From a virus (taxonomy: Duplodnaviria > Caudoviricetes): a stretch of DNA of 53,596 nt. How positions within the stretch are numbered: the first letter of the stretch is position 1; each line of letters opens with the position of its first letter. A program made the translations under genes and the position numbers. Positions 4,833 to 53,291 of the stretch are shown one piece after another. Under the pieces are notes generated by a model that was not told the DNA's origin, did no database searches, and worked only from the letters and a program-made list of their open reading frames with translations. The stretch spans positions 1 through 53,596 of IMG/VR virus record IMGVR_UViG_3300017700_000477; one strand, given 5' to 3'.

Positions 4833-5483
4833 CTACGGCCTGATCAGCAGCACCGGGGATCCGGCGATGACGCGCTGGCCTTCCATCGTGCCTGACGGGC
4901 CGATCAGGTCATAGGTGTCGTGCTCGATCGACGGCTTGATCGTGCGCAGCAACCACGGCCCTTTCTCCAGCCGCACCAGCGACAGGCGGCCGATCGCCGA
5001 TGGCTCCAGGCGGTCGGTGATCTGGACAAAGAACGTCCCGCCGATGATCAGGTTAGAAGCGTTGTGATGCGACGAGGTTGCCGCAATCGCAACCGTGCCG
5101 GGTGGTACTCGAGCCGGCGCGTCGATCATCCTGACTGGCTGGTCGAGGTCGATGTCGGCAGTGCCGTCTTCCTCGATGTGGCCGACCAGCGGGACCGTTG
5201 TGGTACTAGCCATTGGACCGCCAGCACCTCCACCTTCCAACTTCACGCCTAGGTTTATAATCACTTCCGCATTTGTCTTGCCCAAGAACTTCGCAATAGT
5301 AGGCACTTCGTGAAGTTGCACCCGTCTCGCTCCCTGTAACAACTTGGAGACTTGTGCTGGAGTTATTCCCAATTGTCCAGAGAGGTCTGCTTGCGACCTT
5401 CCACAATCTTTGATTGCGGCTCTAAACCACTGTTCATTGATCTCTGACGTGTGCGCCGACCGGGCGCGGACTGATTTCTTCAT
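4833..5483 (-). CDS. CI-like repressor: XRE HTH plus degenerate S24-like C-terminal domain
   Basis: SQADLSGQLGITPAQVSKLLQG.RR..L.E...IAKFLG; VPLVG linker; divergent from rightward operon. Confidence 0.85.
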   Translation of the reverse strand: MKKSVRARSAHTSEINEQWFRAAIKDCGRSQADLSGQLGITPAQVSKLLQGARRVQLHEVPTIAKFLGKTNAEVIINLGVKLEGGGAGGPMASTTTVPLVGHIEEDGTADIDLDQPVRMIDAPARVPPGTVAIAATSSHHNASNLIIGGTFFVQITDRLEPSAIGRLSLVRLEKGPWLLRTIKPSIEHDTYDLIGPSGTMEGQRVIAGSPVLLIRP

Positions 5484-28448: not shown

Positions 28449-28794
28449 GATCACGATCGTCCCTGCCACGCCTGCTCTCGCGTGTGCATGGTTTGGCGGC
28501 CCGCCGCCCTTCACACTGAGGGGCTGCGTGGCCGTGCGCGACGAGCGGCCGGTCGCCATCTTCGGCGTCTACTGGCTGGACGGCGTCGCCATCGCCTTCT
28601 CCGAGTGGCAGCCGGGGCTCGACCGCCGCACCATCGCGCGCTGCTTCCGCCGGGGCGAGCGGCTGCTCAAGGACGTGCCGGGCACCATGTATGCAGAGCC
28701 GCATCCTGGGCAGCAGGCGACGCTGCTTGCCCGGCTGGGCTTCGTGGCTGTCGAGGATGAGGTCGACGGCGGGCCGTTGCTGGTGCGGGCATGA
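28438..28794 (+). CDS. Small acetyltransferase-fold-like protein (T7 gp13 position)
   Basis: C-terminal LARLGF; position after nozzle. Confidence 0.55.
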   Translation: MHAEITIVPATPALACAWFGGPPPFTLRGCVAVRDERPVAIFGVYWLDGVAIAFSEWQPGLDRRTIARCFRRGERLLKDVPGTMYAEPHPGQQATLLARLGFVAVEDEVDGGPLLVRA

Positions 28795-29243
28795 TCGAAC
28801 AGGTGACGTTTGCCGAGATCGAGGCGGACCCCGCCTTCGCCGGCCTGCTGGTCGAGTACGCTGCGGAAAGCGGAAACAGGGGGCTGCCTGAGCCCAAGAT
28901 CGAGCCTGAGACCTATCGCCGGCTGGATGCCGCCGGCGTGCTGACCATATTCGCTGCTCGCGTCGATGGCCGCCTCGTGGGCTTCATCTTCATCCTGGTG
29001 AGCGTCAATCCCCACTACAGCGTCCCGCTGGGCACGAGCGAGAGTTTCTTCGTGGCCAAGGCCCACCGGATGACCGGCCTTCCCCTGCGCCTGCTGCGCG
29101 CGGCCGAAGACCTGGCGCGCGAGAAGGGCGCCAAGGGCATCTATGTCAACACGCCGTTCGGCAGTTCGCTTTGCGAGACCCTCCCGCGGCTGGAATACGT
29201 CGAGACCAACCGGGTGTTCTTCAGGAGCCTGAGCGATGCGTGA
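28791..29243 (+). CDS. GNAT-family acetyltransferase
   Basis: ARVDGRLVGF, FFV..AHR..G...LL..AE..AREKGA. Confidence 0.8.
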   Translation: MIEQVTFAEIEADPAFAGLLVEYAAESGNRGLPEPKIEPETYRRLDAAGVLTIFAARVDGRLVGFIFILVSVNPHYSVPLGTSESFFVAKAHRMTGLPLRLLRAAEDLAREKGAKGIYVNTPFGSSLCETLPRLEYVETNRVFFRSLSDA

Positions 29244-29706: not shown

Positions 29707-30632
29707 CCACTGCTACCGTAATTGCCGGCGTAGGCGCCGCGGCCAGCGTCGCGAGCACCGTCGGCGGCATGATGGGCGGCAGCTCCAAGGCCAGCGCCCA
29801 GCGCGAGTCGGCCGACGACACCTATGAGGCCGCCGTCCGGCGCAACCAGCAGCTCGAGATGCAGGCCGACGAGATCAAGAACCAGGCCCTGCAGCGGGAT
29901 AACCAGGCATTGGTGCAGGACGCGCAGGCGCACCTGCAGCAGGGCCAGGTCGGCATGATGCGCCAGGAAGCGGCGCTTGCGGACAACTCGGCGATCCTGA
30001 CACACCGGCAGGCTGACGCCACGCGCGACCGGGCGACGCTATCCGAGGCGCTTGCCCAGCGCACGGCGATCGAAAGCACGCGCAAGTCTGCCATGGCGGC
30101 CGGCCGTGCCAAGGCGGTCATGGGCGCGTCGGGAGCCGGAGTCGACACGACGGTCATCGCGGACATCCTGGGCGAGGGCAACTATGCCGCCGAGGTGGCG
30201 CTCTACGACGGCAAGGCGCGCGCGCAGGATCTCAAGACCGAGGCGTCGCTACTCGACTATGAAGGGGACCTCACGACCTACGGCGCCAACGTCACGCGCT
30301 ACAATGCCGAGGTCGCGGACTATGGCGTGGCGCTGTCGAAGTGGGGCGCTGAAAACACGCGCTACCAGGCGACGCTCGACCGGCGCACGGCGGACAGCCT
30401 CAAGTGGTCCGGTGGCACGATCCTGCAGGAAGGGGCGGCCGGCGCACAGGCTCTGCGCCGCGGGGCCGACAGCACGGAAAGCACGGGCTACCTGAAGGCT
30501 GGCCTGAGCGGGCTGTCGATCGCGGCCAAGTACGCGCCGCAGTTCATGGACTCGGGCAGCGGCAAGAACGATCCCAGCGTGCCTGATTACTACAACACCA
30601 GCACATTCAGCGGCGGCGGAGAACTAGCATAA
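29694..30632 (+). CDS. Internal virion (ejection) protein, T7 gp14-like
   Basis: Hydrophobic Gly/Ala N-terminus, helical Q/A-rich body, GASG.GV. Confidence 0.75.
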   Translation: MSGVTTATVIAGVGAAASVASTVGGMMGGSSKASAQRESADDTYEAAVRRNQQLEMQADEIKNQALQRDNQALVQDAQAHLQQGQVGMMRQEAALADNSAILTHRQADATRDRATLSEALAQRTAIESTRKSAMAAGRAKAVMGASGAGVDTTVIADILGEGNYAAEVALYDGKARAQDLKTEASLLDYEGDLTTYGANVTRYNAEVADYGVALSKWGAENTRYQATLDRRTADSLKWSGGTILQEGAAGAQALRRGADSTESTGYLKAGLSGLSIAAKYAPQFMDSGSGKNDPSVPDYYNTSTFSGGGELA

Positions 30633-33007
30633 TGCCCACGTTCGCAACCGGCGCAGACTTCAACGTCCCGACTCCTCAAGGCAGCGGCGGCATCCCTCGC
30701 GGCGGCGGAGGCCGGGCATCCGTGCCGGCCGCGCGCATCCCCGGCGACCCCAGCCGCATCGCCACGTCCGGCGCCATACCGGGAGCAGCATCTCCGTCTG
30801 GCATCCCAGCGCAGGTCATGCTCGACGAGTCTCGGCAGACCGCCGATCTCGGCACCGCGCTCGATCGGTTCGGCGCCACGGTCGACAAGTTCGCCGAGAC
30901 CCTCGACCAGACGGCGGCGCAGGAGGCGCTCAACACCCTGCGCGCCAAGCGCCAGGAGATGACCTATGACCCGGAGAAGGGTTATCAGAAGTACCGCGGC
31001 GGCGCGGCGACCAAGAACGGCCCTGGCGGCATGCCGCTGCTCGACGAGCTCCCTGCTGGCCTGCAGTCGGCGGCTGACGAGATCGGTGGCGGACTGAGCA
31101 GCCGCTCGCGCAAGCTGTTCTCCGAGGCCGCATCGCGTGAGGTGCTGGGCTACAAGAAAGACCTCTCGGTCCATGTGGCCAACGAGTCGGAGAAGTATGA
31201 GGCGGCGGTCTACAAGGACACGCAGCTCGGCGCTCTGTCGGAAGCGGTCACGGTCGCCGACGACCCGCTGAAACTGAAAGAGGTTGCCGATCGCGCGGCG
31301 CGCGCGGCGGACATCCGTGCGTCGCAGACCGGGCTGCCCAGCCAAGCGAAGGAAGCGCGGTCGAACGTGCTGCGCTCGGCGATCGAGGGGCAGATTGCGA
31401 GCGGCAATGGGTCGCGCGCTCTGTCCATGTACCAGGCTCTGCTGCCGGACCTTGACGGGCGCGACCGCGTTGCGCTGGGGCCGACCATGCGCACGGTCGG
31501 TATCGGCGAGACGGCCAAGTACCAGGCCGGCGCGCTCACGGCGACGATGCCGGCGCCAGGGCAGGCGGAGGAGGGGACCAAGACCAGCATGGCGTTCTGG
31601 ACTGCCGACGGCTACAGCTCCAAGGCGGCTGCCGGCCTGACCGCTGGCTTCCTCGGTGAGTCGCAGTTCTTCCCAGGCGCTCGCAACAAAGGCGACGGCC
31701 GGGACGGTTCCGACAGCATCAATATCGGCCAGTGGAACAGCGGCCGCGCCAAGGCCCTGCTCGAGTTCGCCCAAAAGAAGGGCCTCGATCCCAACAAGGT
31801 CGAGACCGGGCTGCTCTACGCCAAGGCGGAGATCGACGGCGAGATCCCGCGCGCCATCAGCGGCGTGTCCCCTGACCTGAAGGCCAAACTGCAGAACGCA
31901 AAGACCGAGCAGGAAGCGGCCGACATCATGGTGCGCGGCTACTTTAAGCCGCTCGACCAGGATGGCCAGTCCCATGTGCGCGGCAAGACAGCATCGGGTG
32001 TGCTGGCCAAGTATGGCACGCAGACACCCGACGACCCGCTCAAGAAGTCCGTCGACACGGCCACCGGCGCGACACCCGACGGCGGCAAGCCCAAGGACGG
32101 CCCCAAGTACCTGGACACCCGGCAGATGCTGCTGGATGCGGAGAAGACCTACGACGTCGCCACCCGGCGCAATGCGGAGATCAACGGTGGGAACGACGAC
32201 CAGCGCCGCGCGACACAGTCTCAGCTCGACCTGAACCTGGCCGCGACCAAGCGGTCGATCGACATCGCCAAGCTGCAGCTCGAGGTGAGCGTCGACAAGT
32301 GGATGACGACGGGCGGGCCGCCCGATGCGCAGGGCAATCCCACGTCTGCCCTGCAGCGTCCGCCGCCGGAGATCTGGAACCAGTTGCCGTACCAGAAGCA
32401 GCAGTCCATCGACGCGACGATCGCGCACAATGCGAAGGGCACGGTCGCCGTGACCAATGACCGGGTGTGGGGCGAAATCCACCGCGGCATCACCAACGAG
32501 GACCCGGCCGTCCGCGCTGAATGGGCGCAGAAGTCCTTGTGGGAATACAAGAAAGACCTGTCGAGCAGCGATTACCAGGAGCTGTCGAAGCTCCAAGCGG
32601 CCGGCCGCACGGGCGATCCCAACAAGGATCTGACGCACGTCCGCTCGATCTCGACCATGGTCACTGACGCGTTGCAAAAGCTGAAGGCGGACAAAGACCC
32701 CGAGAAGGTCGACAAGTTCAACCGCATCGTGCAGGGCCAGGTCAACGAGCTGGAGCGCCAGCAGAAGCGCAAGGCCACGCCGGAGGAGCAGCAGAAGATT
32801 ATCGACCGGACGGCGATGGACGTGTTCGTCGGCAAGGGCACGCTCTGGGGCGAGAAGACCAAGCCGCGCTATGAGATGACGATTGCCGACGTGCCCGCCG
32901 CAGAAAAGACAGAGATTACTGCTTCACTCAATCGGCGCAAAATCCCGGTCACAGACGAAAATATTATCGAGCTTTATGCTCGAGGAAATGCCAGGCCGAA
33001 GAAATGA
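30632..33007 (+). CDS. Internal virion protein with phage-tail-lysozyme-like domain
   Basis: AAAGL....GES..F...GD...S..IGQW...R...L..FA in the middle of a helical protein. Confidence 0.8.
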   Translation: MPTFATGADFNVPTPQGSGGIPRGGGGRASVPAARIPGDPSRIATSGAIPGAASPSGIPAQVMLDESRQTADLGTALDRFGATVDKFAETLDQTAAQEALNTLRAKRQEMTYDPEKGYQKYRGGAATKNGPGGMPLLDELPAGLQSAADEIGGGLSSRSRKLFSEAASREVLGYKKDLSVHVANESEKYEAAVYKDTQLGALSEAVTVADDPLKLKEVADRAARAADIRASQTGLPSQAKEARSNVLRSAIEGQIASGNGSRALSMYQALLPDLDGRDRVALGPTMRTVGIGETAKYQAGALTATMPAPGQAEEGTKTSMAFWTADGYSSKAAAGLTAGFLGESQFFPGARNKGDGRDGSDSINIGQWNSGRAKALLEFAQKKGLDPNKVETGLLYAKAEIDGEIPRAISGVSPDLKAKLQNAKTEQEAADIMVRGYFKPLDQDGQSHVRGKTASGVLAKYGTQTPDDPLKKSVDTATGATPDGGKPKDGPKYLDTRQMLLDAEKTYDVATRRNAEINGGNDDQRRATQSQLDLNLAATKRSIDIAKLQLEVSVDKWMTTGGPPDAQGNPTSALQRPPPEIWNQLPYQKQQSIDATIAHNAKGTVAVTNDRVWGEIHRGITNEDPAVRAEWAQKSLWEYKKDLSSSDYQELSKLQAAGRTGDPNKDLTHVRSISTMVTDALQKLKADKDPEKVDKFNRIVQGQVNELERQQKRKATPEEQQKIIDRTAMDVFVGKGTLWGEKTKPRYEMTIADVPAAEKTEITASLNRRKIPVTDENIIELYARGNARPKK

Positions 33008-36000
33008 GCGACATCTCCGACGCCGCGATCGAGCCGACAGTTGAACAGCCGGCCGTCGCGGTCGACGCGCCTGTGCCTGACGTCCAGTTGGCGGAAGCGC
33101 CACCGGTCAACAAGTACGACGCGGCCGCCGCTGAGATGGTGGAAGCGCCGGCGGCAGTGTCCGTTCCTCCGGTCAACAAGTACGACGCCGCGGCCGACTC
33201 GCTGGTCAGCGACCGCAACACGAAGGTCCGCGCCTCGGTCCTGACATCGACTGGCACGGCGGACACCGCCGGCAAGGCTGTGGCCCTGTCGCGCAAGACG
33301 GGGCTGCCGGCCGACATGGTCGAGCGCAATCTCCCGGAGGTCGAGAAGACCGACAAGCTGAACCGGTACGACGAGATACTGAAGAACGCGCCGAAAATGG
33401 CCGACTGGCTGGCGCAGGATCCGATGAACGTCAAGGTCGCCGATGGCGAGGGCGACGTCGAAAAGCTGGGCTTCCTGGAGTGGACGGTCAACGAGCTGTA
33501 CCGCCCGTACCTGCAGCAGCAGGCGTCGTCCGGCCTGGCGGGCATGAAGGTAGCCGCCGGCAAGATCACGCAGCTTGACGCCGCGGAAGCCAAGGCCGCG
33601 CGCGGTGACTACCTGACGCCATTCGAGAAGGCGATGCTGCCGCAGGCCGAGCAAATCCGCAAAGAGATGCAGGGCTTCATGGCCCAATACAGCACCCAGC
33701 GGCTGGAGCGGTCTGCCCAGGCTGCGGCGCTGCCGGAGTTGCCCGCGGTCAAGGAGATGCAGGCCGCCGGCGAGGCTGGCGATTGGGGCGGCGTCTTCTC
33801 CGCTCTGATGAAGGACCCCGTCCGCGCGGCCTACGCGATCTCCCTGCAGGGCGCCGCGATGCTGCCGCTCCAGATTGGTGGCGCTGTCGTCGCCGGCCCG
33901 GTCGGCGTGTTCGGCGTGTCGTTCGGGCTCGAGTACATGGGCGCCGTCGAGGAGGCCATCAAGGCGTCCGGCGTCGACACCCAGGATCCGGCCGCGCTGA
34001 TGAAGGCGCTGTCCAATCCCGAGCTCATGGCCAAGGTCGAGAAGCAGGCGGCGACCAAGGCGTCGGTCATTGGCGCGTTCGATACGGCGTCGATGGGCGT
34101 GGCCGGAAAGACCATTGGCGTCGGCCGGAAGGCGCTCACTCGCCACGCGACGAACATCGTGGCCCAGATTGGCGTGCAGGGCGCGCTCGGCGGGGCCGGT
34201 GAGGCGCTGGGCTCACTGGCGGCTGATCTGCCTGTAGACCCCTTCGCAGTCGTTTCTGAGGTGCTGGGCGAAATGGGCGGCGCTCCGATGGAGGTCGCGG
34301 GCGTGCGCGGGTGGAAGAATGCCGTCCGCCAGGATGCGACGGCCGAGCAGTGGGCGAAGTTCCAGGCCCTGCCGCCGGCGGAGCAGCAGGCTACCGGGCA
34401 GGCTATGCTGCTCGACAAGCTAGTCGCGCAGGCCAACGACACCAAGCTGGCGAAGACCTCGCCGGAGAAGCTGCAGGAGTTCATGGCCAGCGTGTCCGGC
34501 CAGGACGCCACGGTGTTCGTGCCGGCCGAGGCGGTGAACAGCTACATGCAGGACATGACCGGGCTGCAGTCGGAAGCGTTCCTGAGCAGCCTGGGCGTGA
34601 CAGCCGACCAGATTGCCCGCATCCGCCAGACGGACGAAGACTTCGCCATTCCGCTCGCCATGTACATCACGGGCGCGAGCGAGGCGCACGCGGCTTGGCG
34701 CGACCAGGTCCGCACCGAGGTTGATGGCTTTTCCGTGAGGCAGGCTCAGGAATGGGCCAAGGCCAAGGACGAGCAAATCAAGGCGCTGCAGGACAAGTTC
34801 GAGGAGCACGTCGCCGCGGGCCTGCCGCCCGATCCGCAGACCGTCGTCTACCAGCAGGTGCTGGAGATGGCCAAGGCCAACGGCTACACCAACGACGTCG
34901 CCAGCCAGCACGCCGCGCTATACGCCTCGCGGTACGCGGCGCGTGCCGCCCGCAACCCTGGCCAGTATGCCGACGCGCTCGACGCCTTCGAGAAGGCTGG
35001 CACCGGCAAGGGCCTGCAGATCCAGACCATGCTGGCCGACGGCACGCGCGCCGCTGGCCCCGGCGTGCTCGACACGATGCTCGACAGCCTCCGGTCGGGC
35101 AAAGACCCCGTCAGGGTGCCCAGGGCTGCCCGTGTGGCCAAGGATGCCGGCCCCGCGGCCGACGCCACCATCCTGAAGGCAGCGTCGCGCCTGGCGCGCG
35201 GCTGGACGCCTGAGAAGGCCATCCCGGCGCCGCAGTCCCTGACCGACTTCGTGCGCAAGAACGGCGGCCTGCGTCTCGGCACGTCGGAAGCGGGCGATCT
35301 CCGCGCGGCGGACCTGACCAAGATCCCCGGCCTCCTGCAGTTGAAGGGCAAGGGCAAGGGCCGCCAGGCCGACGACATGGCGCAGGCCGCCATGGATGCC
35401 GGCTTCCGGTTCGGCCCTGACACGGCGACCGGCAGTGGCGTCGATGTGGCGGCGTTCCTCAAGGCGCTCGAGGGCGATGCCACCGGCCGCTCCAAGGCGT
35501 ACCCGGACGATGCCGACACCACCGCGTTCCAGGAGCAGCAGGACTATTTCAACGAGTTCTTCCGCTGGCTGAAGGACGACCTGGGCTGGGAGCCCAAGGG
35601 CCGGACGCCGGAGGAGGTCGCCAAGTTCCTGGCGCAGGACGACACCACGCAGCGCCTGATGGTGCTGGCCGAGCGTGTCGAGGCCCTGGGACCGGACAGC
35701 GACGAGGCGCGGCATCTCGATCGTGAGCTCGCCCGCATCGCCGACGAGTCCCTTGAGCGGCTGGCCGACGAGTTCGCCGATCGCGACGCGGCGATGGCCG
35801 TTGACGATACCGGCGCCGCCGTCGACACTGACGGGTTAACAACCGAGGAATGGGAAGCACTCCATGACGAAATCGCAGCAACTGTCGAAGATGACGCAGC
35901 GACTGACGGGCGTCCTGCAGACGGACAAGCTGCCGGGCAGCGCGCGCAAGGAGCTGGCCGCGATAAGGCTGGCGACGTCGCTGCGGGTAAAACTCCGAAA

Positions 36001-39000
36001 GAAGCAGCCGCAGCTCGACGGGAAGCTGCCCTAGGCAAGTTCCAGTCCGACCGCCGGCAGCTGGCGGACGTGCTCGACAGCCTGGGGCTCGACATAGGGA
36101 AGATGTCGAATGCGCAGGTGCGGGCGGTGCTGGAGAAGGAAGTGGCTGGGCGCAAGTTCGACCAAGGCGTGCCAGTGGACCTGACGCCGGGCGGTGGCAG
36201 CAAGACGATCACGGTGGGCGACACCACGATCGACTATGGCGTCGCATCTGATGGCAAGTCGGCCGAGGTCATCCTGATCAAGACGCCAGCGGCAAAGCGT
36301 GGCGAAGGCAGCGGACGTGCCGCGCTAGAGCAGTTCCTGCGCTCGACCGATGCGGCCGGCATAACGGTGTTCCTCACGGCCGAGCCAATGGACAAGGGCA
36401 CCAGCAAGGCCAAGCTGGAGGCGTTCTATAAGTCGGTCGGCTTCAAGGCCAACAAGGGCAAGAACAAGGATTTCAGCAGCCGCGCGGGAATGGTGCGTGC
36501 TCCGTCCAAGACCTACAACCAGCCCGTCTACCACGGCGGCCCGCACATCTTCGACCGCTTCAGCCTGGATCACATCGGCTCGGGCGAGGGCGCGCAAGCC
36601 TACGGCTGGGGGCTGTACTTCGCGGGGAAGAAGGAGATTGCGGAGTTCTACAAGACTTCAATCGGCCGCAATGAGGACGAGCTGATCAAGATCGGCGAGC
36701 GGTATGGATTGTCTGGAGACGCTGCAGTCATGCTTGCGCAGCAGTTCCAGCGCAAGTTTGGCGGAAAGACTTTTGACGGCTGGCTGGATAGTGTGGCGAC
36801 GGCTGTGGATGACCCGTTGCTGGCCGCTCGGTCGCGAGATGCAATGACGCAGCTACTGGAAAAGAGGGTCGAGGCTGCTGACGCATTTGCGGATATGAAG
36901 GCTCCCGGCCGCCTCTACCACGTCGAGATCCCCGAGGATGGCGCCTATCTGCTGTGGGACAAGCCGCTCAGTGAGCAGCCGGAGGGGGTGAAGGCTGCGC
37001 TCGAGAAGTTGGGTGTCGCCGCGCCGGCCAGGCCGACGCCGCCCGCTGATCGAGTAATCGCCGAGATCGTTCGCCGGGCCATCAAGATGAACGATGGCGA
37101 TTTCCGAGACCTGTCTCTCACGATCGACAATGACAGCGCGCTCTACAATCTCGCGGCGCAGCACGCGAAGCGCGCGGGCGCGGATATGGACGAAGGCCCC
37201 GGCGCTTACGTCGAGGAGCAGGCTGCGGCCTACCTCAAGGAATTGACGGACCAAGATGCCAACACTGGCGAACGCATCTATAAGGCGCTCGCTGACAAGG
37301 CTGGCGCGGAGATCGATACTGCTGGCCAAGACTTCGCGGACGGCAAGCCAATGGGCCGGGCGATTACCGAGTGGAACGCCAACCCCTTCAAGGGCGCATC
37401 GGCGCTGCTCCGCGAGGCCGGCATCCCCGGCATCAAGTATCTCGACGGTAGCAGCCGCCACGACGGCGACGGCACCCACAACTACGTCCTGTTCGACGAC
37501 AGCCTCGCCAAGATCACGCAGTACGAGCAAGCCGCTCGCGGCTCCATCACCTTCGGCGACAACGCCACGATCATCCAGCTTTTCCAGTCCCGCGACCTGT
37601 CGACCCTGGCGCACGAGTCCGGCCATCTCTGGCTGGAGGAGCTTTCCTTCGACGCCAAGAACGCCACCGCCTCTGACGCCATCAAGGCCGACTGGCAGGC
37701 GGTGCTGGAGTTCGTCGGCTCGACCGACGGCTACATCACCCGCGATCAGCACGAGCTATTCGCCCGCGGCTTCGAGACCTACCTCATGGAAGGCAAGGCG
37801 CCGAGCGAGGGCCTGCGGTCGGTGTTCCGCCAGTTCAAAAACTGGCTCGTCTCCATCTACCGGAACCTGACCAAACTGCAGGCGCCGCTGTCGCCGGAGA
37901 TGCGGCAGGTGTTCGATCGCCTGATCGCGACCGACGAGGAGATCGCCAACGCGCAGAACGTCCAGGCGCTCAACCCGGTATTCACCGACGCCAAGTCGGC
38001 CGGCATGACCGAGGCTGAGTTCGCGGCGTACACGCGGCGCGCGACGCAGGTGGTCGACGTGGCAGAGCAGGCCGTCCTCGAGAAGGTCATGGCCAGCATC
38101 CGCCGCGAGCGGACGAAAGAAGTGGCTGCCGAGAAGGCCAAGATCCGTGGCGAGGTCACTGACGAGCTGATGGCCGAGCCGGGCCAGGCCGCGCTGCACC
38201 TGCTGCGCACGGGCAAGCTGTTCGCCGGCGAGACCCCCGAGGTGCTGGTCGACGCGAAGCTGGACCGCAATAGCCTGGTCGAGATCTTGGGCGAGGCTGG
38301 GCTGGCGAACCTGCCGGCCGGCTCCTACGTGGCCGAGGGCGGTGTCGACGTCGACATGCTGGCGACGGTGGTCGGCTTGGCCAATGGCGTCGAGCTCGTC
38401 GAGCGGATGATGCAGATTCAGGCAGAGCAGGCGGCGATGCGCGCCAAGGGCGACAACCGGTCGGTGGCCGGCGCCCGCATTGCCGAGGAGACGCAGCGCA
38501 GGCTGACGGAAGCCCTGGGCGATCCGCTCAACGACGGCACGATCGAGGCCGAGGCGATGGCCGCGATCCATTCCGACAAGCAGGGCGCGCTGATGTCGAC
38601 CGAGCTCAAGGTGCTCGCGCGCAAGGCGGGCCAGACGGGCGCCATCACGCTGGACGATATCCAGTCGTGGGCGGAAAGCACGATCGCCGAAATGTCGGTC
38701 TACCAGGGCACGCAGGCTGCCAAGTACCAGCGGGCCGAGCGGATGGCTGGCCAGAAGGTCCAGCGCGCGCTGATCAAGGGCGACTTCGTGGCGGCGTTCA
38801 AGGCCAAGCAGGACCAGCTCGTCAACTTCGCGCTCTATCAGGAGGCCAAGAAGGCGGCCGAGGACGTCGAGGGCATCCGCAAACTGGCCGACCGCTACGC
38901 CTCGGCGGCCACGATCAAGAGCATGGAGCAGTCGTCGCTCGAGCAGATCCACCAGTTGCTCGAGGACTACGACTTCAAGAAGCGCGGTGGCAAGCTGCTG

Positions 39001-41286
39001 GCCGAGCGGACCACGTTCTCTGCCTGGGCTGCGGAGCAGGCTGCGGCCGGCTTCGAGGTGATCGAGCCGCCCCGCCTGAAGGGTGCGACCAGCAAGCACT
39101 TCTCGCAGATGACGGTCGAGGAGATCCGGGGTGTCGGCGACACGATCAAGCAGATTGCGCATATCGGCCGCTGGAAGCAGGAGATGCTCGACGACGGCAA
39201 GAAGCGCGCCTTCGAGGCTCTGGTCGACGAGGCCGTGACCACTGCCGGCAAGATAGACCAGCGCGGCGTGAGCCAGTTGCGGCGCGGCACGACCAACCTG
39301 CAGGACGCCCTGGGCGACACCGGCTCGTGGTTCCGGTCGGTCGACTCGGCGCTGCTCAAGATGGAGACGATGTTCGAGTGGCTGGACAACGACAAGACCG
39401 GCCGCGGCGTCTTCAGCCGGGTGGTGTTCCGTCGCATCGCGGACGCGCAGGTCGTCGAGCGCGACATGCAGAAAGACCTGGCCGACAGACAGAAGGCCAT
39501 CTTCGACAAGGTGCCGCGCGAGCAGAGCCGCCTGTGGTCGCAGCAGCATACGGTCGACCTGCCGGGCACCAAGCAGTTGAACAAGAGCCAGATGCTGGCC
39601 GTGGCCCTGAACATGGGCAACGAGTCGAACAAGACGAAGCTGCTCGAAGGCGAGAAGTGGGCCGAGGCCGACGTCAAGGCCATGCTCGACAAGAACCTCA
39701 CGGCCGAGGAATGGCGGTTCGTGCAGGATACGTGGGACCTGATCGACTCCAAGTGGCCGGAGACCGAGGCGCTCGAGAAGCGCGTCAACGGTGTCGCGCC
39801 GCCCAAGGTCGAGGCTGTGGCCGTGGTCACACCGCACGGCACCCTGCGCGGCGGGTACTATCCCATGAGCTACGACAAGGCCGGCGACGTGAAGGCCGAC
39901 CGGGTATCGTCCAAGTCGGGCGAGGGGCTGTTCGATCCCGAGTATCGCCGGGCGTCGACGCGCGCCGGCTCGACGCATGAGCGCGTCGCGGGCTTCAACG
40001 CCAAGGTGCTGCTATCGCTCAACGTCATCGGCTCGCATCTCAATGAGGTCGCGCACGATCTCGCGTTCCGCGAGGCCGTCATGGACATCAACAAGTTCCT
40101 GTCCAACGACAAGGTCCGCGATGCCATCCGTGGCGCCGTCGGGCCGGAGTATGAGAAGCAGACCCTGGTCTGGCTCAAGGCCGTGGCCAACGAGTGGGCG
40201 ATCGACCGTCGCGGGCTGGAAGGTATCGACAAGTTCCTGCAGACGGCGCGGGCGAATACCGCGATCGTCGGAATGGGCTTCCGGGTGTCGACCATGTTCT
40301 CGCAGGTGGCCGGCTTCGGCAACTCGGTCCAGCGCCTGGGATCGGCCAACATGATGCGCGGCATGCGGGACTTCTACCGCAACCCTTTCGCCATGGCCGA
40401 GGCCGTGCGCGGCAAGTCGGGCGAGATGCGTCACCGTGCCAACGATCTCGAGCGGGACATCCGCCTGGCGCTGAAGCGGATGGAGGGCAAAGACTCCAGC
40501 CTCGACAGCGTGCGCCGGTTCGCTTTCCGCGGTATCGCCCTGTTCGACGCTGCCGTGTCCCTGCCGACATGGATGGGCGCCTACAACGACGGTCTGCGCC
40601 AGGGCATGAGCGAGGCGGACGCGGTCCACTACGGCGACAAGATGGTGCGCGACACACAGGGAGCTGGCTCGGTCAAGGATCTGTCGGCATTCCAGCGCGG
40701 CAGCGAGCCTCTGAAGCTGCTGGGCATGTTCTATTCGTACTTCAACGTCTACTACAATCGGCAGCGGAGCATCGCGCGCGACTTCCGCTCGGCCGACTCC
40801 TTCTCGGATTACATGAACGTCGTCGGCCAGGGCCTGTGGCTCATGGTCATCCCGACGCTTCTGGCCGGCTTGCTGTCGGGACAGGGGCCGGATGATGACG
40901 AGGAGTGGCTGACGTGGGCCATGCGCAACGTCGGCTTCGGCGTGTTCTCCGGTATCCCCTGGGCGCGCGACGTGTCTGGTGCTGCCAGCAACCTCGTCGG
41001 CGGCAAGAATTTCGGCGGCGCCAAGCTCTCCCCGATCGAGGGCATCGGCGAGGGCGTGATTAAGCTGGGCAAGGATGCGGTCGCACTGGTCCAGGGCAAG
41101 GAGACGTCCAAGACCTCGATCAAAAATGCCTTCAACGTGACGGGACTGTTCACGGCCCTGCCGCTCGGCCAGGTTGGCGCCTCCTCGCAATTCGTGTGGG
41201 ATGCGCTGGTCGAGGGAACGCAGGACCCCGAGGGTCTGCTCGACTGGATGAAGGGCCTGGCCTACGGGCCGAAGCATAAGAAGTAG
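33004..41286 (+). CDS. Giant (2760 aa) polyvalent internal virion protein with GNAT, ART-like and HExxH metallopeptidase domains
   Basis: KRGEGSGR..FYKSVGF (about 36170-36500); YHG..FD.F...GEG.QAYGWGLYF...NYVLFD (36526-37510); STLAHESGH (37612). Confidence 0.85.
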   Translation: MSDISDAAIEPTVEQPAVAVDAPVPDVQLAEAPPVNKYDAAAAEMVEAPAAVSVPPVNKYDAAADSLVSDRNTKVRASVLTSTGTADTAGKAVALSRKTGLPADMVERNLPEVEKTDKLNRYDEILKNAPKMADWLAQDPMNVKVADGEGDVEKLGFLEWTVNELYRPYLQQQASSGLAGMKVAAGKITQLDAAEAKAARGDYLTPFEKAMLPQAEQIRKEMQGFMAQYSTQRLERSAQAAALPELPAVKEMQAAGEAGDWGGVFSALMKDPVRAAYAISLQGAAMLPLQIGGAVVAGPVGVFGVSFGLEYMGAVEEAIKASGVDTQDPAALMKALSNPELMAKVEKQAATKASVIGAFDTASMGVAGKTIGVGRKALTRHATNIVAQIGVQGALGGAGEALGSLAADLPVDPFAVVSEVLGEMGGAPMEVAGVRGWKNAVRQDATAEQWAKFQALPPAEQQATGQAMLLDKLVAQANDTKLAKTSPEKLQEFMASVSGQDATVFVPAEAVNSYMQDMTGLQSEAFLSSLGVTADQIARIRQTDEDFAIPLAMYITGASEAHAAWRDQVRTEVDGFSVRQAQEWAKAKDEQIKALQDKFEEHVAAGLPPDPQTVVYQQVLEMAKANGYTNDVASQHAALYASRYAARAARNPGQYADALDAFEKAGTGKGLQIQTMLADGTRAAGPGVLDTMLDSLRSGKDPVRVPRAARVAKDAGPAADATILKAASRLARGWTPEKAIPAPQSLTDFVRKNGGLRLGTSEAGDLRAADLTKIPGLLQLKGKGKGRQADDMAQAAMDAGFRFGPDTATGSGVDVAAFLKALEGDATGRSKAYPDDADTTAFQEQQDYFNEFFRWLKDDLGWEPKGRTPEEVAKFLAQDDTTQRLMVLAERVEALGPDSDEARHLDRELARIADESLERLADEFADRDAAMAVDDTGAAVDTDGLTTEEWEALHDEIAATVEDDAATDGRPADGQAAGQRAQGAGRDKAGDVAAGKTPKEAAAARREAALGKFQSDRRQLADVLDSLGLDIGKMSNAQVRAVLEKEVAGRKFDQGVPVDLTPGGGSKTITVGDTTIDYGVASDGKSAEVILIKTPAAKRGEGSGRAALEQFLRSTDAAGITVFLTAEPMDKGTSKAKLEAFYKSVGFKANKGKNKDFSSRAGMVRAPSKTYNQPVYHGGPHIFDRFSLDHIGSGEGAQAYGWGLYFAGKKEIAEFYKTSIGRNEDELIKIGERYGLSGDAAVMLAQQFQRKFGGKTFDGWLDSVATAVDDPLLAARSRDAMTQLLEKRVEAADAFADMKAPGRLYHVEIPEDGAYLLWDKPLSEQPEGVKAALEKLGVAAPARPTPPADRVIAEIVRRAIKMNDGDFRDLSLTIDNDSALYNLAAQHAKRAGADMDEGPGAYVEEQAAAYLKELTDQDANTGERIYKALADKAGAEIDTAGQDFADGKPMGRAITEWNANPFKGASALLREAGIPGIKYLDGSSRHDGDGTHNYVLFDDSLAKITQYEQAARGSITFGDNATIIQLFQSRDLSTLAHESGHLWLEELSFDAKNATASDAIKADWQAVLEFVGSTDGYITRDQHELFARGFETYLMEGKAPSEGLRSVFRQFKNWLVSIYRNLTKLQAPLSPEMRQVFDRLIATDEEIANAQNVQALNPVFTDAKSAGMTEAEFAAYTRRATQVVDVAEQAVLEKVMASIRRERTKEVAAEKAKIRGEVTDELMAEPGQAALHLLRTGKLFAGETPEVLVDAKLDRNSLVEILGEAGLANLPAGSYVAEGGVDVDMLATVVGLANGVELVERMMQIQAEQAAMRAKGDNRSVAGARIAEETQRRLTEALGDPLNDGTIEAEAMAAIHSDKQGALMSTELKVLARKAGQTGAITLDDIQSWAESTIAEMSVYQGTQAAKYQRAERMAGQKVQRALIKGDFVAAFKAKQDQLVNFALYQEAKKAAEDVEGIRKLADRYASAATIKSMEQSSLEQIHQLLEDYDFKKRGGKLLAERTTFSAWAAEQAAAGFEVIEPPRLKGATSKHFSQMTVEEIRGVGDTIKQIAHIGRWKQEMLDDGKKRAFEALVDEAVTTAGKIDQRGVSQLRRGTTNLQDALGDTGSWFRSVDSALLKMETMFEWLDNDKTGRGVFSRVVFRRIADAQVVERDMQKDLADRQKAIFDKVPREQSRLWSQQHTVDLPGTKQLNKSQMLAVALNMGNESNKTKLLEGEKWAEADVKAMLDKNLTAEEWRFVQDTWDLIDSKWPETEALEKRVNGVAPPKVEAVAVVTPHGTLRGGYYPMSYDKAGDVKADRVSSKSGEGLFDPEYRRASTRAGSTHERVAGFNAKVLLSLNVIGSHLNEVAHDLAFREAVMDINKFLSNDKVRDAIRGAVGPEYEKQTLVWLKAVANEWAIDRRGLEGIDKFLQTARANTAIVGMGFRVSTMFSQVAGFGNSVQRLGSANMMRGMRDFYRNPFAMAEAVRGKSGEMRHRANDLERDIRLALKRMEGKDSSLDSVRRFAFRGIALFDAAVSLPTWMGAYNDGLRQGMSEADAVHYGDKMVRDTQGAGSVKDLSAFQRGSEPLKLLGMFYSYFNVYYNRQRSIARDFRSADSFSDYMNVVGQGLWLMVIPTLLAGLLSGQGPDDDEEWLTWAMRNVGFGVFSGIPWARDVSGAASNLVGGKNFGGAKLSPIEGIGEGVIKLGKDAVALVQGKETSKTSIKNAFNVTGLFTALPLGQVGASSQFVWDALVEGTQDPEGLLDWMKGLAYGPKHKK
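35864..36034 (+). CDS. Putative nested +1-frame gene (56 aa, basic) inside the giant gene
   Basis: MTKSQQLSKMTQRLTGVLQTDKLPGSARKELAAIRLATSLRVKLRKKQPQLDGKLP; GC3 bias shifts to this frame; upstream TTGACG-N17-GACACT. Confidence 0.55.
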   Translation: MTKSQQLSKMTQRLTGVLQTDKLPGSARKELAAIRLATSLRVKLRKKQPQLDGKLP

Positions 41287-47385: not shown

Positions 47386-47756
47386 CACTCGCGGGCGTCT
47401 GGGCACTGGCGCGCTCCGCCGCCGCTTCCTGGCAGTACATCGTCATCGGCCTGCTCGTGGTCGCCCTTGGCGCGCAGACTCTGCGTCTGTCGTGGGCGAA
47501 GAACGCCCTGATAGCCGATCGGGCAGCCCAAGCCGAGGCCGTGCGACTGCAGGCTGCCAAGGCCGAGTCCCTCTCGAACGAATTGATCATCGCCCAGGCC
47601 GCCGCCATGGCCATCACGGAAAGGACATCGGTGGAATATGTCGACCGCATCAAGACCGTTCGCGTGCCTACGGAATGTCCTGCTGATGAGCGCGATCGCC
47701 TTGGCAGCCGGGGCGTGCTCGAGCTCCTACATCGCAACAAGCCCGCGGCCAAGTGA
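47382..47756 (+). CDS. Inner-membrane spanin (Rz-like)
   Basis: N-terminal TM, coiled coil, C-terminal Cys; overlaps a lipoprotein gene. Confidence 0.75.
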   Translation: MTLAGVWALARSAAASWQYIVIGLLVVALGAQTLRLSWAKNALIADRAAQAEAVRLQAAKAESLSNELIIAQAAAMAITERTSVEYVDRIKTVRVPTECPADERDRLGSRGVLELLHRNKPAAK

Positions 47757-47919
47757 GGCTCTGATGGTCGACTGTCCCGAGCCGCAGTTGGTGCCAGACC
47801 CGGAGACGGCCGGCCGCACCGAGATCAACGTCGAGCGGATCGAGGTCGCCAAGTATGCGGTCTGCAACCGGGGCCGCTTCGAGGGCCTGCGGGACTGGAT
47901 CCGGGGGATGGCGAAGTGA
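47638..47919 (+). CDS. Outer-membrane spanin lipoprotein (Rz1-like)
   Basis: Lipobox LAAGAC, Pro-rich, P..LM..CP.P; overlapping frame. Confidence 0.8.
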   Translation: MSTASRPFACLRNVLLMSAIALAAGACSSSYIATSPRPSEALMVDCPEPQLVPDPETAGRTEINVERIEVAKYAVCNRGRFEGLRDWIRGMAK

Positions 47920-48182
47920 CCGCGCTCGAGCGCCTGGCCCTCGCTGTCGTGTTCGTCTTCATCGCCATGACCGGCGCCACGCGAGCCGACGAGGACCCGC
48001 GCAAGGAGTTCCCGCGCCTCCAGGCCACCGAGTTCTGCGCCGCTGTGAAGCTGCCGCCGCCCATCCTGGTCGAGGCCATCAACCACGCCATGTCGAAAGA
48101 CCCGGCGGCGTGGGGGCCGGTCGTCGAGTGGTTCAACCGTATTGGCGAACGATACATGGCACTCAAGTGTGGGGATTCCTGA
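47916..48182 (+). CDS. Secreted hypothetical protein
   Basis: Signal peptide ending TRA; two Cys. Confidence 0.65.
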   Translation: MTALERLALAVVFVFIAMTGATRADEDPRKEFPRLQATEFCAAVKLPPPILVEAINHAMSKDPAAWGPVVEWFNRIGERYMALKCGDS

Positions 48183-51682: not shown

Positions 51683-52207
51683 TCCATGCTGAGATACGAC
51701 AGCTTGCGCTAGTCTTATTAGTACGCCCGCGCCCCAATCCGACATGGCGGTGTTTGCTGCAACGCAGACTATGCGAACGTTTCCCATGCGATAAGATTTG
51801 CCAGAGTCGATGCGATCGACCGATGGCGCCCAAGGATTCCGAGGGCAGCCCGACGAGTTTATGAAGGACAGCGGCACACCGGAGATGGCGCACTTTCCTT
51901 GGCTATCCCTGAGCAGTTTCGCTAATTGTTTTTCGGTGAGGCGGACTTGCCTGCGGTCATGACCGCACTTGGCAACGCGCTGCAATCTAGCAAGAAGCGA
52001 TCGCGCAAATTTTGCAGAAGCCATCTTGCGGAAATGGCTTTCATCCGTGTCCGATTCTTCAATCATGGAAAAGCGCAGCGCCGCGGCCCTAGCTTCCGCA
52101 ACTCGCCTGTCGTTCGTTTTCATGGACTGTCGGAATGAACGCCCACTGACGGCCCAGGTGGCGTACCACCTATCGCTTGCGGCTATCTTTGCGAGTTTTA
52201 CTTTCAT
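51626..52207 (-). CDS. Chimeric protein: integrase-type arm-binding N-terminus plus HNH-like (DRID-type) C-terminus
   Basis: RWYATW.VSGRSFRQSMKT.DRR.AE; CAISG...PSVDRIDS.KSY..GNVRIVC..AN. Confidence 0.75.
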   Translation of the reverse strand: MKVKLAKIAASDRWYATWAVSGRSFRQSMKTNDRRVAEARAAALRFSMIEESDTDESHFRKMASAKFARSLLARLQRVAKCGHDRRQVRLTEKQLAKLLRDSQGKCAISGVPLSFINSSGCPRNPWAPSVDRIDSGKSYRMGNVRIVCVAANTAMSDWGAGVLIRLAQAVVSQHGLRANRAQIDPLTEGAEVA

Positions 52208-53291
52208 TTCTCTTTGATACCACAACGCGCGCAACTTTACTAGTTTTGCGCGCGGCCGTCGGGCGAGCGACCGCTTCTGCTGCCTCTCTCAAGTCTTCAA
52301 CCATGTGCTTGCCGTAGACCGATTGCAGGGTCCGCATGCTGGTCGCGGTCATGCCGGACACGATCCAGGGAGAGGCTACGCGCAGTGCCCATGTGACGGC
52401 GGTGTGCTTCAGGATATGTGGCGTGGCATGCGGCAGGCCGGCGGCTTTTGCGACCAGCCGGAAGGCGCGCCGGATACTCTTGAGCGGCTGGTCCTTAAAC
52501 TTCTCTGGCCGACTCATGGGCTGGATGACGTACGCGCTACTGCTGGTCTGGCGCTGTCGGCGCAGAAGCGCAACGACGTGCGCCGGCAGCGCGGTCAGAG
52601 CTCGCCGCTTCCGGTTGTGATCGACACCCGGCAGGCGGAAATCGACTGTCCCCGCCTTGAGGTCGACGCGGTCCCACGTGAGTTGCAGAATCGCCCCGCG
52701 CCTGGCGCCGGTCGCTATGGCCAGATGAATGAACAGCGCGACGTGCCTATGGTCTTCCGTCTCCTCGGCCGCGCGCGTCATGGCGTCGACCTGGGGCCGC
52801 GTCAGAAACTCGGGGCGGGGTGGCGGCTCCCGATCGCTGGGAACGAATGGCGCGGTGGCCAGGTCGCCGAACCGCACGGCCTGCCGCAGGGCAGCGCGCA
52901 AGACGGTGCGGTGCAGGTTGATGGTCCCGATCGCCATGCCGTCGGCGATGCACTTTGCCTTGTACCGCTCCATGCTCCTGGCATTGACACTGTCGACCGC
53001 GGCCAGACCGAAGAACTTGTTGAGGTGCCTGGTCCTGATGCCGATCGCCTCCGCGCTGGCGAGTTTGTGGGCGTGGCGAGTCCAGTAATTTTCGAGAACA
53101 GTGGCAATCGAGATCTGGTCCGGCTTTGCCTCGGCCGGCCGGTCTAGCTCGAGGATGAAGTTTGCGAGGAATTTTTCAGCCGGGCCAACGTCTTTAAAAC
53201 CCGTTGACGCACGGCGTGATCTTCTCCGCTCAGTCCAGACGACATAGTAGCGCCCGTTGTCGGGGTGCTTCCAGAGTTTATGATTGGGCAT
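52170..53291 (-). CDS. int: Tyrosine integrase
   Basis: N-terminal arm-binding domain; TGAR..IL.LTWDRVD, PHILKHT, VYGKH; next to attP. Confidence 0.93.
   Translation of the reverse strand: MPNHKLWKHPDNGRYYVVWTERRRSRRASTGFKDVGPAEKFLANFILELDRPAEAKPDQISIATVLENYWTRHAHKLASAEAIGIRTRHLNKFFGLAAVDSVNARSMERYKAKCIADGMAIGTINLHRTVLRAALRQAVRFGDLATAPFVPSDREPPPRPEFLTRPQVDAMTRAAEETEDHRHVALFIHLAIATGARRGAILQLTWDRVDLKAGTVDFRLPGVDHNRKRRALTALPAHVVALLRRQRQTSSSAYVIQPMSRPEKFKDQPLKSIRRAFRLVAKAAGLPHATPHILKHTAVTWALRVASPWIVSGMTATSMRTLQSVYGKHMVEDLREAAEAVARPTAARKTSKVARVVVSKRNESKTRKDSRKR

Follow-up and report, generated by a model that had tools for sequence, protein, structure and literature searches.

A probable protein-coding gene nested in the +1 frame of a giant phage polyvalent-protein gene

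The DNA stretch examined here, virus record IMGVR_UViG_3300017700_000477 (53.6 kb, G+C 65%; the whole of it is called the window), carries on its + strand a giant gene whose product, of 2760 amino acids (aa), is probably a virion or ejection protein of the 'polyvalent' class. This gene, hereafter the host gene, is overlapped in a linker between two of its domains by a short open reading frame (ORF) lying on the same strand, in the +1 frame. An earlier note, drawn up from the letters of the window, had pointed out this 56-aa ATG-to-TAG frame as a probable overprinted gene, and the frame is present at 35864-36034. Taking into account the comparative evidence described below, the ORF is considered, with a probability of about 0.8, to be a genuine protein-coding gene, and the same DNA very probably encodes two proteins. 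The features on which the argument depends are the following.

33004-41286 (+): host gene, 8.3 kb, for the giant virion/ejection 'polyvalent' protein of 2760 aa, assigned from Pfam LPD22, phrog_9880 and gene order
35686-35895 (+): most acidic 70-aa stretch of the host protein (aa 895-964), net charge -19
35801-35829 (+): candidate promoter with conserved hexamers, TTGACG (35801-06), a spacer of 17 nucleotides (nt) and GACACT (35824-29)
35851-35856 (+): Shine-Dalgarno-like TGGGAA (weak GGGA), 8 nt before the nested ATG, invariant in 5/5 sequences, with a putative function
35863-36033 (+): host-frame linker (aa 954-1010), A/G/D-rich and poorly conserved, overprinted by the nested gene
35863-35866 (+): nested start site CATG, in which the His codon CAT and the G of the next codon form ATG
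35864-36034 (+): probable nested +1-frame gene for a basic orphan protein, 56 codons plus TAG, starting with ATG
36031-36034 (+): nested stop site, in which the Leu codon CTA and the following A/G form TAA or TAG

Composition and conservation of the nested frame

The nested ATG begins one base 3' of the main-frame codon start at 35863. Across the 57 overlapped codons, the G+C content at positions 1, 2 and 3 of the host frame (GC1/2/3) is 0.88/0.61/0.42, compared with 0.67/0.44/0.87 in the whole gene, and the GC3 minimum among all the 57-codon windows of the host gene (mean 0.872, standard deviation 0.085) is found in the one starting at 35848. A or T ends 33 of the 57 codons, which include six GCA, six GCT, three ACT, two GGA, two CAA and one CCT; in the rest of the gene these codons account for 3%, 11%, 6%, 6%, 7% and 9% of their respective families. 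Read in the +1 frame, the same nucleotides give 0.62/0.43/0.88, which is the ordinary gene profile of this genome, and the values in all five copies compared below (.61-.68/.43-.48/.82-.88) are likewise close to the gene-wide ones (.67/.44/.87). The per-frame GC3 check therefore agrees with what had been read from the sequence at the outset: the six main-frame codons that the earlier note had listed, those just named, are all rare elsewhere in the gene, main-frame GC3 is here the lowest of the host gene, and the +1 codons end mostly in G or C.

By itself, an open +1 frame is not unusual at this place. When the host protein is kept and its codons are redrawn, 22-88% of null trials stay open, and the open frame alone means little, because the linker has few codons able to yield stops in the +1 frame. 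What exceeds chance, judging from the sequences compared, is the conservation pattern rather than the open frame itself.

Scans of viral and metagenome contigs provided four distinct homologous DNA loci (L081=L086, L082=L087=L001, L083=L085 and L084), with a main-frame identity of 66-71%; together with the window they make up the five sequences compared here, all of them metagenomic. In 5/5 sequences the +1 ORF has 56 codons, begins at the same ATG and stops at the same position. The codon CAT, on which the ATG depends, is kept in all of them, though it represents 29% of the His codons in the rest of the gene, and so is CTA, on which the stop depends, though it represents 3% of the Leu codons. 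Stops in the +1 frame of homologous linkers, named in the earlier note as evidence that would count against its proposal, were looked for and are absent from 4/4 loci; the host and +1 frames are the only ones free of stops in all five sequences. Peptide-based scans of the viral and metagenome contigs returned only the same four loci, and scans of GTDB genome contigs gave no relative. Among GenBank phages, blastn of 35300-36700 found one unrelated 132-nt match and no relative, and tblastn of the 300-aa module and of the peptide found no match.

The manner in which these sequences have diverged depends on the codon position. Mean pairwise differences at host positions 1, 2 and 3 are.106/.100/.415 upstream of the overlap,.242/.232/.151 within it and.188/.168/.404 downstream of it. 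When windows of 30 codons, 91 in number, were moved along an alignment that covers 33004-38365 with 1395 ungapped codons, position 3 was seen to behave differently in the overlap: it changes less than positions 1 and 2 in three of the 91 windows, all of them within 35869-36046, with a difference at position 3 (d3) of 0.09-0.18. Invariant host residues are encoded by identical codons in 15/18 cases in the overlap versus 33/117 in the flanks (Fisher p=1.2e-5), and position 3 is invariant at variable host residues in 25/39 versus 17/67 cases (p=1.7e-4). The synonymous-constraint scan across homologues, which had been suggested as a check of the proposal, thus detects a suppression confined to the overlap (d3 0.151 against 0.40-0.415 in the flanks).

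Concerning selection, omega estimated by the Nei-Gojobori method (NG86) is 0.37-0.65 in the +1 frame, and the host frame gives apparent values of 1.3-3.4 because the synonymous divergence (dS) is suppressed. Three pairs have 17, 17 and 14 changes that are synonymous only in the +1 frame, against 8, 10 and 4 that are synonymous only in the host frame, the mutational opportunity for the two classes being about equal (120 vs 128). At the protein level, the identity of the +1 peptide to the window copy is.57-.61 in the four homologues, above every draw of a null in which the host protein of the homologue was kept and its codons were redrawn at the flank codon-retention rate (5000 draws x 4 homologues; mean identity.31-.34, maximum.48-.52), and 26 of the 56 peptide residues are invariant. 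Since the ATG, the stop and the length are kept, host synonymous change is suppressed only over the ORF, and the +1 frame is under purifying selection, the core claim of a real nested coding gene is strongly supported. As read from these substitution patterns, selection in the linker stretch is acting mainly on the +1 frame, and the host frame need only stay open and encode a tolerant linker.

Relatives of the peptide have also been sought among proteins. An exhaustive HMMER search with a peptide profile across 1.84 billion representative proteins gave two matches, a 56-aa protein and a 101-aa protein with a diverged copy in its last 53 residues, and no long protein containing the peptide. A word-indexed protein search gave five peptide homologues of 56-68 aa. 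One homologue cluster, under the name 'hypothetical protein [Reyranella sp.]', has WP_/HQ NCBI accessions. The deposited peptide homologues (among P0019 and P0022-P0031) are 56-aa hypothetical proteins on contigs of up to 464 kb; gene callers therefore pick the +1 frame, which says nothing about expression.

Host-frame GC3 dips a second time, mildly and to 0.63, at 36634-36960, in the ART-like region. The homologues are not alignable there, and no notable alternative-frame ORF was found in these positions.

The giant host protein and rival explanations

In the host protein, the Pfam domain LPD22 is detected at aa 78-165 with 57 bits (cut-off 28.6), and a sub-threshold match to ART-PolyVal (22.8 bits, cut-off 31.2) is located downstream of the nested gene; on these grounds the protein is assigned to the 'polyvalent' proteins. 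The phrog_9880 match covers aa 1503-2759, and other Pfam matches are weak (Acetyltransf_7, E=0.13; RES, E=0.028). The gene comes after the tail tubular genes and a 791-aa lysin-like gene, where podoviruses keep their ejection proteins. It had been stated that the ORF lies just before GNAT and ART-like domains, and the matches do follow the ORF, but both the acetyltransferase and the ART-PolyVal ones remain sub-threshold.

A protein search with host residues 780-1180 retrieved 18 relatives, between which modules have been swapped: PF18834, PF18760, PF18796, PF18814 and GNAT families are carried in varying order, and seven of the 18 (P0001-P0007) have an EWExLH motif and the linker in common. 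Besides the window, where it lies at 36181-36528 (host aa ~1060-1175), only L083/L085 and protein P0006 have the GNAT-like module. In L081, L082 and L084, a conserved SNAQ(V/I)R helix runs straight into ART-like sequence without this module, and a module-swap boundary can therefore be placed about 100 nt downstream of the nested stop. The linker itself has 18 invariant residues out of 57, compared with 120 out of 187 in its flanks.

The constraint described above could in principle be non-coding, exerted by an RNA structure, by a DNA site or by a ribosome-slowing cluster of rare codons at the domain boundary, with the open +1 frame as a by-product. Such a constraint would account for the suppressed synonymous change and for the rare codons that are kept, and the null trials show how often the frame is open by chance. 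However, the effect is specific to codon position, host positions 1 and 2 being relaxed and position 3 held, and of the 39 columns in which the host residue changes, 25 still keep position 3, whereas for a pause cluster one rare codon would be as good as another. Conservation of the +1 peptide moreover goes beyond all 5000 null draws, and its ATG, its stop and its length are kept. As for an RNA structure, RNAalifold on the five sequences gave an unfavourable covariation term (+3.04) and many broken pairs, and no Rfam match was obtained at E<=1. A non-coding origin of the pattern is thus very unlikely.

Phage structural genes have known frameshift products, such as the tail chaperone G/GT, and a programmed frameshift from the host frame would here release a truncated giant protein of ~950 aa with a 56-aa alternative tail. 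In the four homologues the +1 frame is indeed open for 24-78 codons upstream of the ATG; in the window, however, it is closed 8 codons upstream, and this upstream +1 reading is W/C-rich junk. The first windows to show the d3 dip are those that cover the beginning of the ORF, 5/5 sequences retain CAT, the rare His codon from which the ATG is formed, and the exhaustive HMMER search gave no long protein ending in the peptide. A slippery motif was not seen by eye in 35840-35863, a segment on which no formal search was made. Taken together, these data make a frameshift highly improbable. Hardly any weight is given to a chance open frame, functionless and conserved by shared descent only, even though GC-rich genomes are full of long spurious ORFs and one of them, an antisense ORF of 227 aa (35544-36227, -), runs across the same stretch. 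Shared descent cannot lower the change at position 3 while raising it at positions 1 and 2, and the dip is unique among the 91 windows and matches the ORF borders. The antisense frame gains stops in 4/4 homologues, and the +1 frame never does.

The antisense ORF was itself considered as a gene and rejected. It has one or two stops in 4/4 homologues and, being broken in all of them and sharing its third positions with the host frame, it is taken for a shadow ORF of GC-rich DNA. A recent recombination patch was also rejected as the source of the pattern, positions 1 and 2 being more, not less, diverged.

Several points weigh against a coding gene or limit the strength with which it can be proposed. 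The omega values of 0.37-0.65 represent moderate, not strong, constraint; the five sequences amount to about three lineages, since L081, L083 and L084 are 89-94% identical over the ORF; in the window/L084 pair, the position-3 deficit alone is non-significant (p=0.27); and the Shine-Dalgarno-like motif of the ORF is weak. Beyond these sequences, the best-case +1 reading of each relative was computed by a dynamic programme. P0001-P0005 score 199-222 and P0008-P0018 are at background; the distant host proteins P0006 and P0007, 44-52% identical to that of the window, peak, over their whole length, at the homologous site with 125 and 135 (99.9th percentile ~100), where the peptide resembles the others of the family, values that represent a compatibility test only, made from protein without their DNA. 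Finally, no family assignment backs any function for the peptide. Nothing credible was found in Pfam, NCBIfam or PADLOC, nor in PHROGs (best E 0.098) or PDB sequences (best E 0.15), and an ESM Atlas search with the homologue P0019 reached a best score of 0.76, under the noise level of the tool itself.

Expression and possible function of the nested product

If the nested gene is translated, ribosomes would start at the conserved ATG, aided by the weak GGGA 8 nt upstream. The TGGGAA that contains it also encodes the W-E of the host EWE motif, and GGGA-type motifs similar to it precede some other starts in the window. Translation would use the long late mRNA or, alternatively, a short RNA initiated at the conserved TTGACG-N17-GACACT element.

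This element, proposed in the earlier note as the ORF's own promoter, is present as described there, with TTGACG at 35801, GACACT at 35824 and the purine-rich sequence GAGGAATGGGAAG also upstream of the ORF. The choice of hexamers was made on a single sequence and preceded the examination of any homologue; their 12 sites are invariant in the five sequences (12/12), in comparison with 7/39 of the other sites in 35797-35847. Two rare codons contribute to them, GTT (3% of Val) and ACT (6% of Thr), both kept in 5/5 sequences, and the second hexamer has the A at position 2 and the T at position 6. Other data tell against the element. The pair agrees with the consensus at 5/6 plus 3/6 positions (8/12), and a generic sigma-70 scan with a threshold of 9/12 omits it. 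In addition, P0006 lacks by deletion the host segment that matches the -35 element, and V-D...D-T is not kept in P0007, so those lineages, if they keep the ORF, do not use it. The proposal of an own promoter therefore retains the conservation of the hexamers and of their rare codons, but the match to consensus is weak, and the odds of a dedicated promoter are considered to be about even from the sequences at hand. A repeated phage promoter motif was ruled out: the exact hexamer pair occurs once in the window, and there are 3 matches with up to two mismatches against 3.35 expected. A scan of the + strand of the host gene found no terminator-like site.

With a dedicated promoter, the nested gene could also be expressed from the prophage. 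The window contains RecT/exonuclease, primase-helicase, terminase, portal, major head and tail tubular genes, an integrase gene at 52170-53291 (-) (phrog_1, E=1.5e-44) and, at 4833-5483 (-), a weak transcriptional-repressor match (E=5.6e-5). From this gene set, the integrase and the weak repressor match, it looks like a temperate, podovirus-like phage, and since an integrase is present, expression in a lysogen is conceivable. The giant-protein homologue P0001 is located on a 1.7-Mb contig, i.e., in a bacterial chromosome.

Two other genes of this region are worth recording. At 30632-33007 (+), a 791-aa protein with endolysin-like and tape-measure-like PHROG matches is probably an internal virion lysin, and its gene shares its final four bases, 33004-33007, with the beginning of the giant gene. 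Among the tail genes, at 28791-29243 (+), there is a separate acetyltransferase-like ORF of 150 aa (phrog_1249, E=2.6e-12).

The peptide of the window is strongly basic, with an isoelectric point (pI) of 11.5, 13 K+R, 3 D+E and a net charge of about +10. It is basic in 4/5 copies (pI 10.0-11.5), and the fifth copy, that of L083, has a pI of 8.2. An L-P-G at residues 23-25 is invariant, no copy of the five contains Cys, and the N-terminus is polar. The C-terminal run alternates Leu/Ile and Arg/Lys and has a strand-like hydrophobic moment (0.90-1.04 at 170 degrees vs 0.28-0.37 at 100 degrees), and residues 35-45 have a strand-like, not helix-like, amphipathic periodicity in 5/5 copies. Of the description 'basic, helical-looking' given initially, the first half is right, and the second does not fit residues 35-45.

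Regarding its role, the best guess, offered tentatively from sequence features, is that the nested product works with the giant protein, as an assembly or packaging partner or as a neutraliser. It might bind the most acidic segment of the host protein, encoded immediately upstream. With a net charge of -19, this segment stands apart from the next most acidic 70-aa stretches of the 2760-aa protein (-11 and -9), and it terminates where the nested gene starts; a basic product next to an acidic stretch of this kind is a weak hint, and the sole one, that the peptide may bind its own host protein. Against this stands the nearly neutral copy of L083, which weakens a purely electrostatic model of binding. 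Nucleic-acid binding, the next guess suggested by the composition, is possible though unlikely.

A more specific role had been put forward in the earlier note, namely that of an antidote to the injected enzymatic domains or of a superinfection-exclusion factor of the lysogen; put together, the product would be made from its own promoter in lysogens, counteract the GNAT and ART-like domains and so neutralise the effector of superinfecting kin. In such an arrangement, effector and neutraliser would share the same nucleotides and the peptide would bind the giant protein; a prophage would render harmless the effector that related phages bring in on superinfection, and late in infection the peptide would hold the effector inactive until it is packaged. 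The conserved promoter-like element, the integrase and the weak repressor match, the chromosomal location of P0001, and the ART-like segments that follow the ORF in the window (and by eye also in the homologues) are in favour of this proposal. However, the ORF is kept with or without the GNAT-like module, as in L081, L082 and L084, which all lack it, and an antidote specific for GNAT is therefore unlikely. Taking also into account that the enzymatic domains are sub-threshold matches and that the peptide has no similarity to known immunity, antitoxin or defence families, both the antidote and the wider effector-neutraliser arrangement are regarded as quite unlikely.

Significance and comparison with known systems

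Nested genes of tailed phages are rarely annotated, as they are filtered out in gene calling and spurious open frames abound in GC-rich DNA. In the present case, a signal visible in a single sequence, a local collapse of GC3 together with a genome-typical composition of the +1 frame, was confirmed by an independent comparative test, and this combination may therefore be of use in screening GC-rich phages for hidden genes. Of all phage proteins, the polyvalent and ejection proteins are those that host defences encounter first, and a conserved small partner inside one of them would offer a new way into the question of how such giants are regulated, packaged or counteracted. The case also bears on the evolution of modular giant proteins, since another gene mainly determines the linker sequence of a multidomain protein.

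Among tailed dsDNA phages, lambda Rz/Rz1 and P2 lysB/lysC are known cases of a small gene embedded in a larger one and read in its +1 frame, and the paired products work together. Like Rz1, the ORF described here lies wholly inside a larger phage gene, on the same strand and in the +1 frame. A product of the Rz1 type is a lipoprotein of the outer membrane that carries a signal sequence and a lipobox Cys, and the peptide differs from it in having neither Cys nor a hydrophobic N-terminus; since the peptide has no lipobox and its N-terminus is polar, an identity as an Rz1-type spanin was rejected. The host gene is also different, being that of a virion ejection/polyvalent protein and not a lysis gene, and the window has a Rz-like spanin of its own elsewhere, at 47638-47919 (+) (phrog_456, E=1.9e-5), which the next ORF, 47916-48182 (+), overlaps by 4 nt.

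Prophage morons are promoter-gene units inserted in late operons and expressed from the lysogen; they lie between genes and usually end in a terminator. The nested gene is similar in having a possible sigma-70-type promoter before a small gene in the late region of an apparently temperate phage. In contrast to a moron, the unit is here inside a coding sequence, and the + strand of the host gene offers no terminator-like site.

Polyvalent proteins have been described in phages and conjugative elements (Iyer et al. 2017, PMC5512222). The host protein resembles them in its LPD22 domain above cut-off, its ART-PolyVal-like segment, its giant size, its multidomain organisation and the swapping of modules between relatives. 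The main text of PMC5512222, its supplements aside, describes no nested gene for a protein of this class, nor does it mention overlapping genes, frameshifts or internal promoters. The literature searched, supplements again aside, gave no account of a gene nested within that of a polyvalent or ejection protein.

The closest system in logic, on the basis of passages of PMC8227390, is that of hepatitis B virus (HBV), in which a tolerant spacer of a large multidomain protein, the polymerase, is overprinted by another gene, the surface (S) gene, with an overlap of 1200 nt. It differs from the locus described here in that HBV is an animal virus with a tiny genome, and the present overlap covers 171 nt in a 53.6-kb phage window. 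For HBV, it has been proposed in the same passages that the single polymerase of today derives from two genes formerly separated by a short one. Under the codon-usage criterion given there (PMC8227390), the +1 frame, with its genome-like codon usage, would rank as the older of the two, although GC pressure on weakly constrained sites could mimic this signal. In a bolder and quite unlikely reading, the small gene may be older than the linker, and read-through of a formerly free-standing gene, which became the linker, may have enlarged the polyvalent protein.

As to the proposed partnership between the two products, a precedent exists in XL-alpha-s and ALEX, two unrelated proteins that are encoded in overlapping frames of one transcript and bind each other (PMC1186735). 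Although the locus is a mammalian one, it provides a case in which an overprinted product is a partner of the protein of its host gene, as is tentatively suggested here for the nested peptide and the giant protein.

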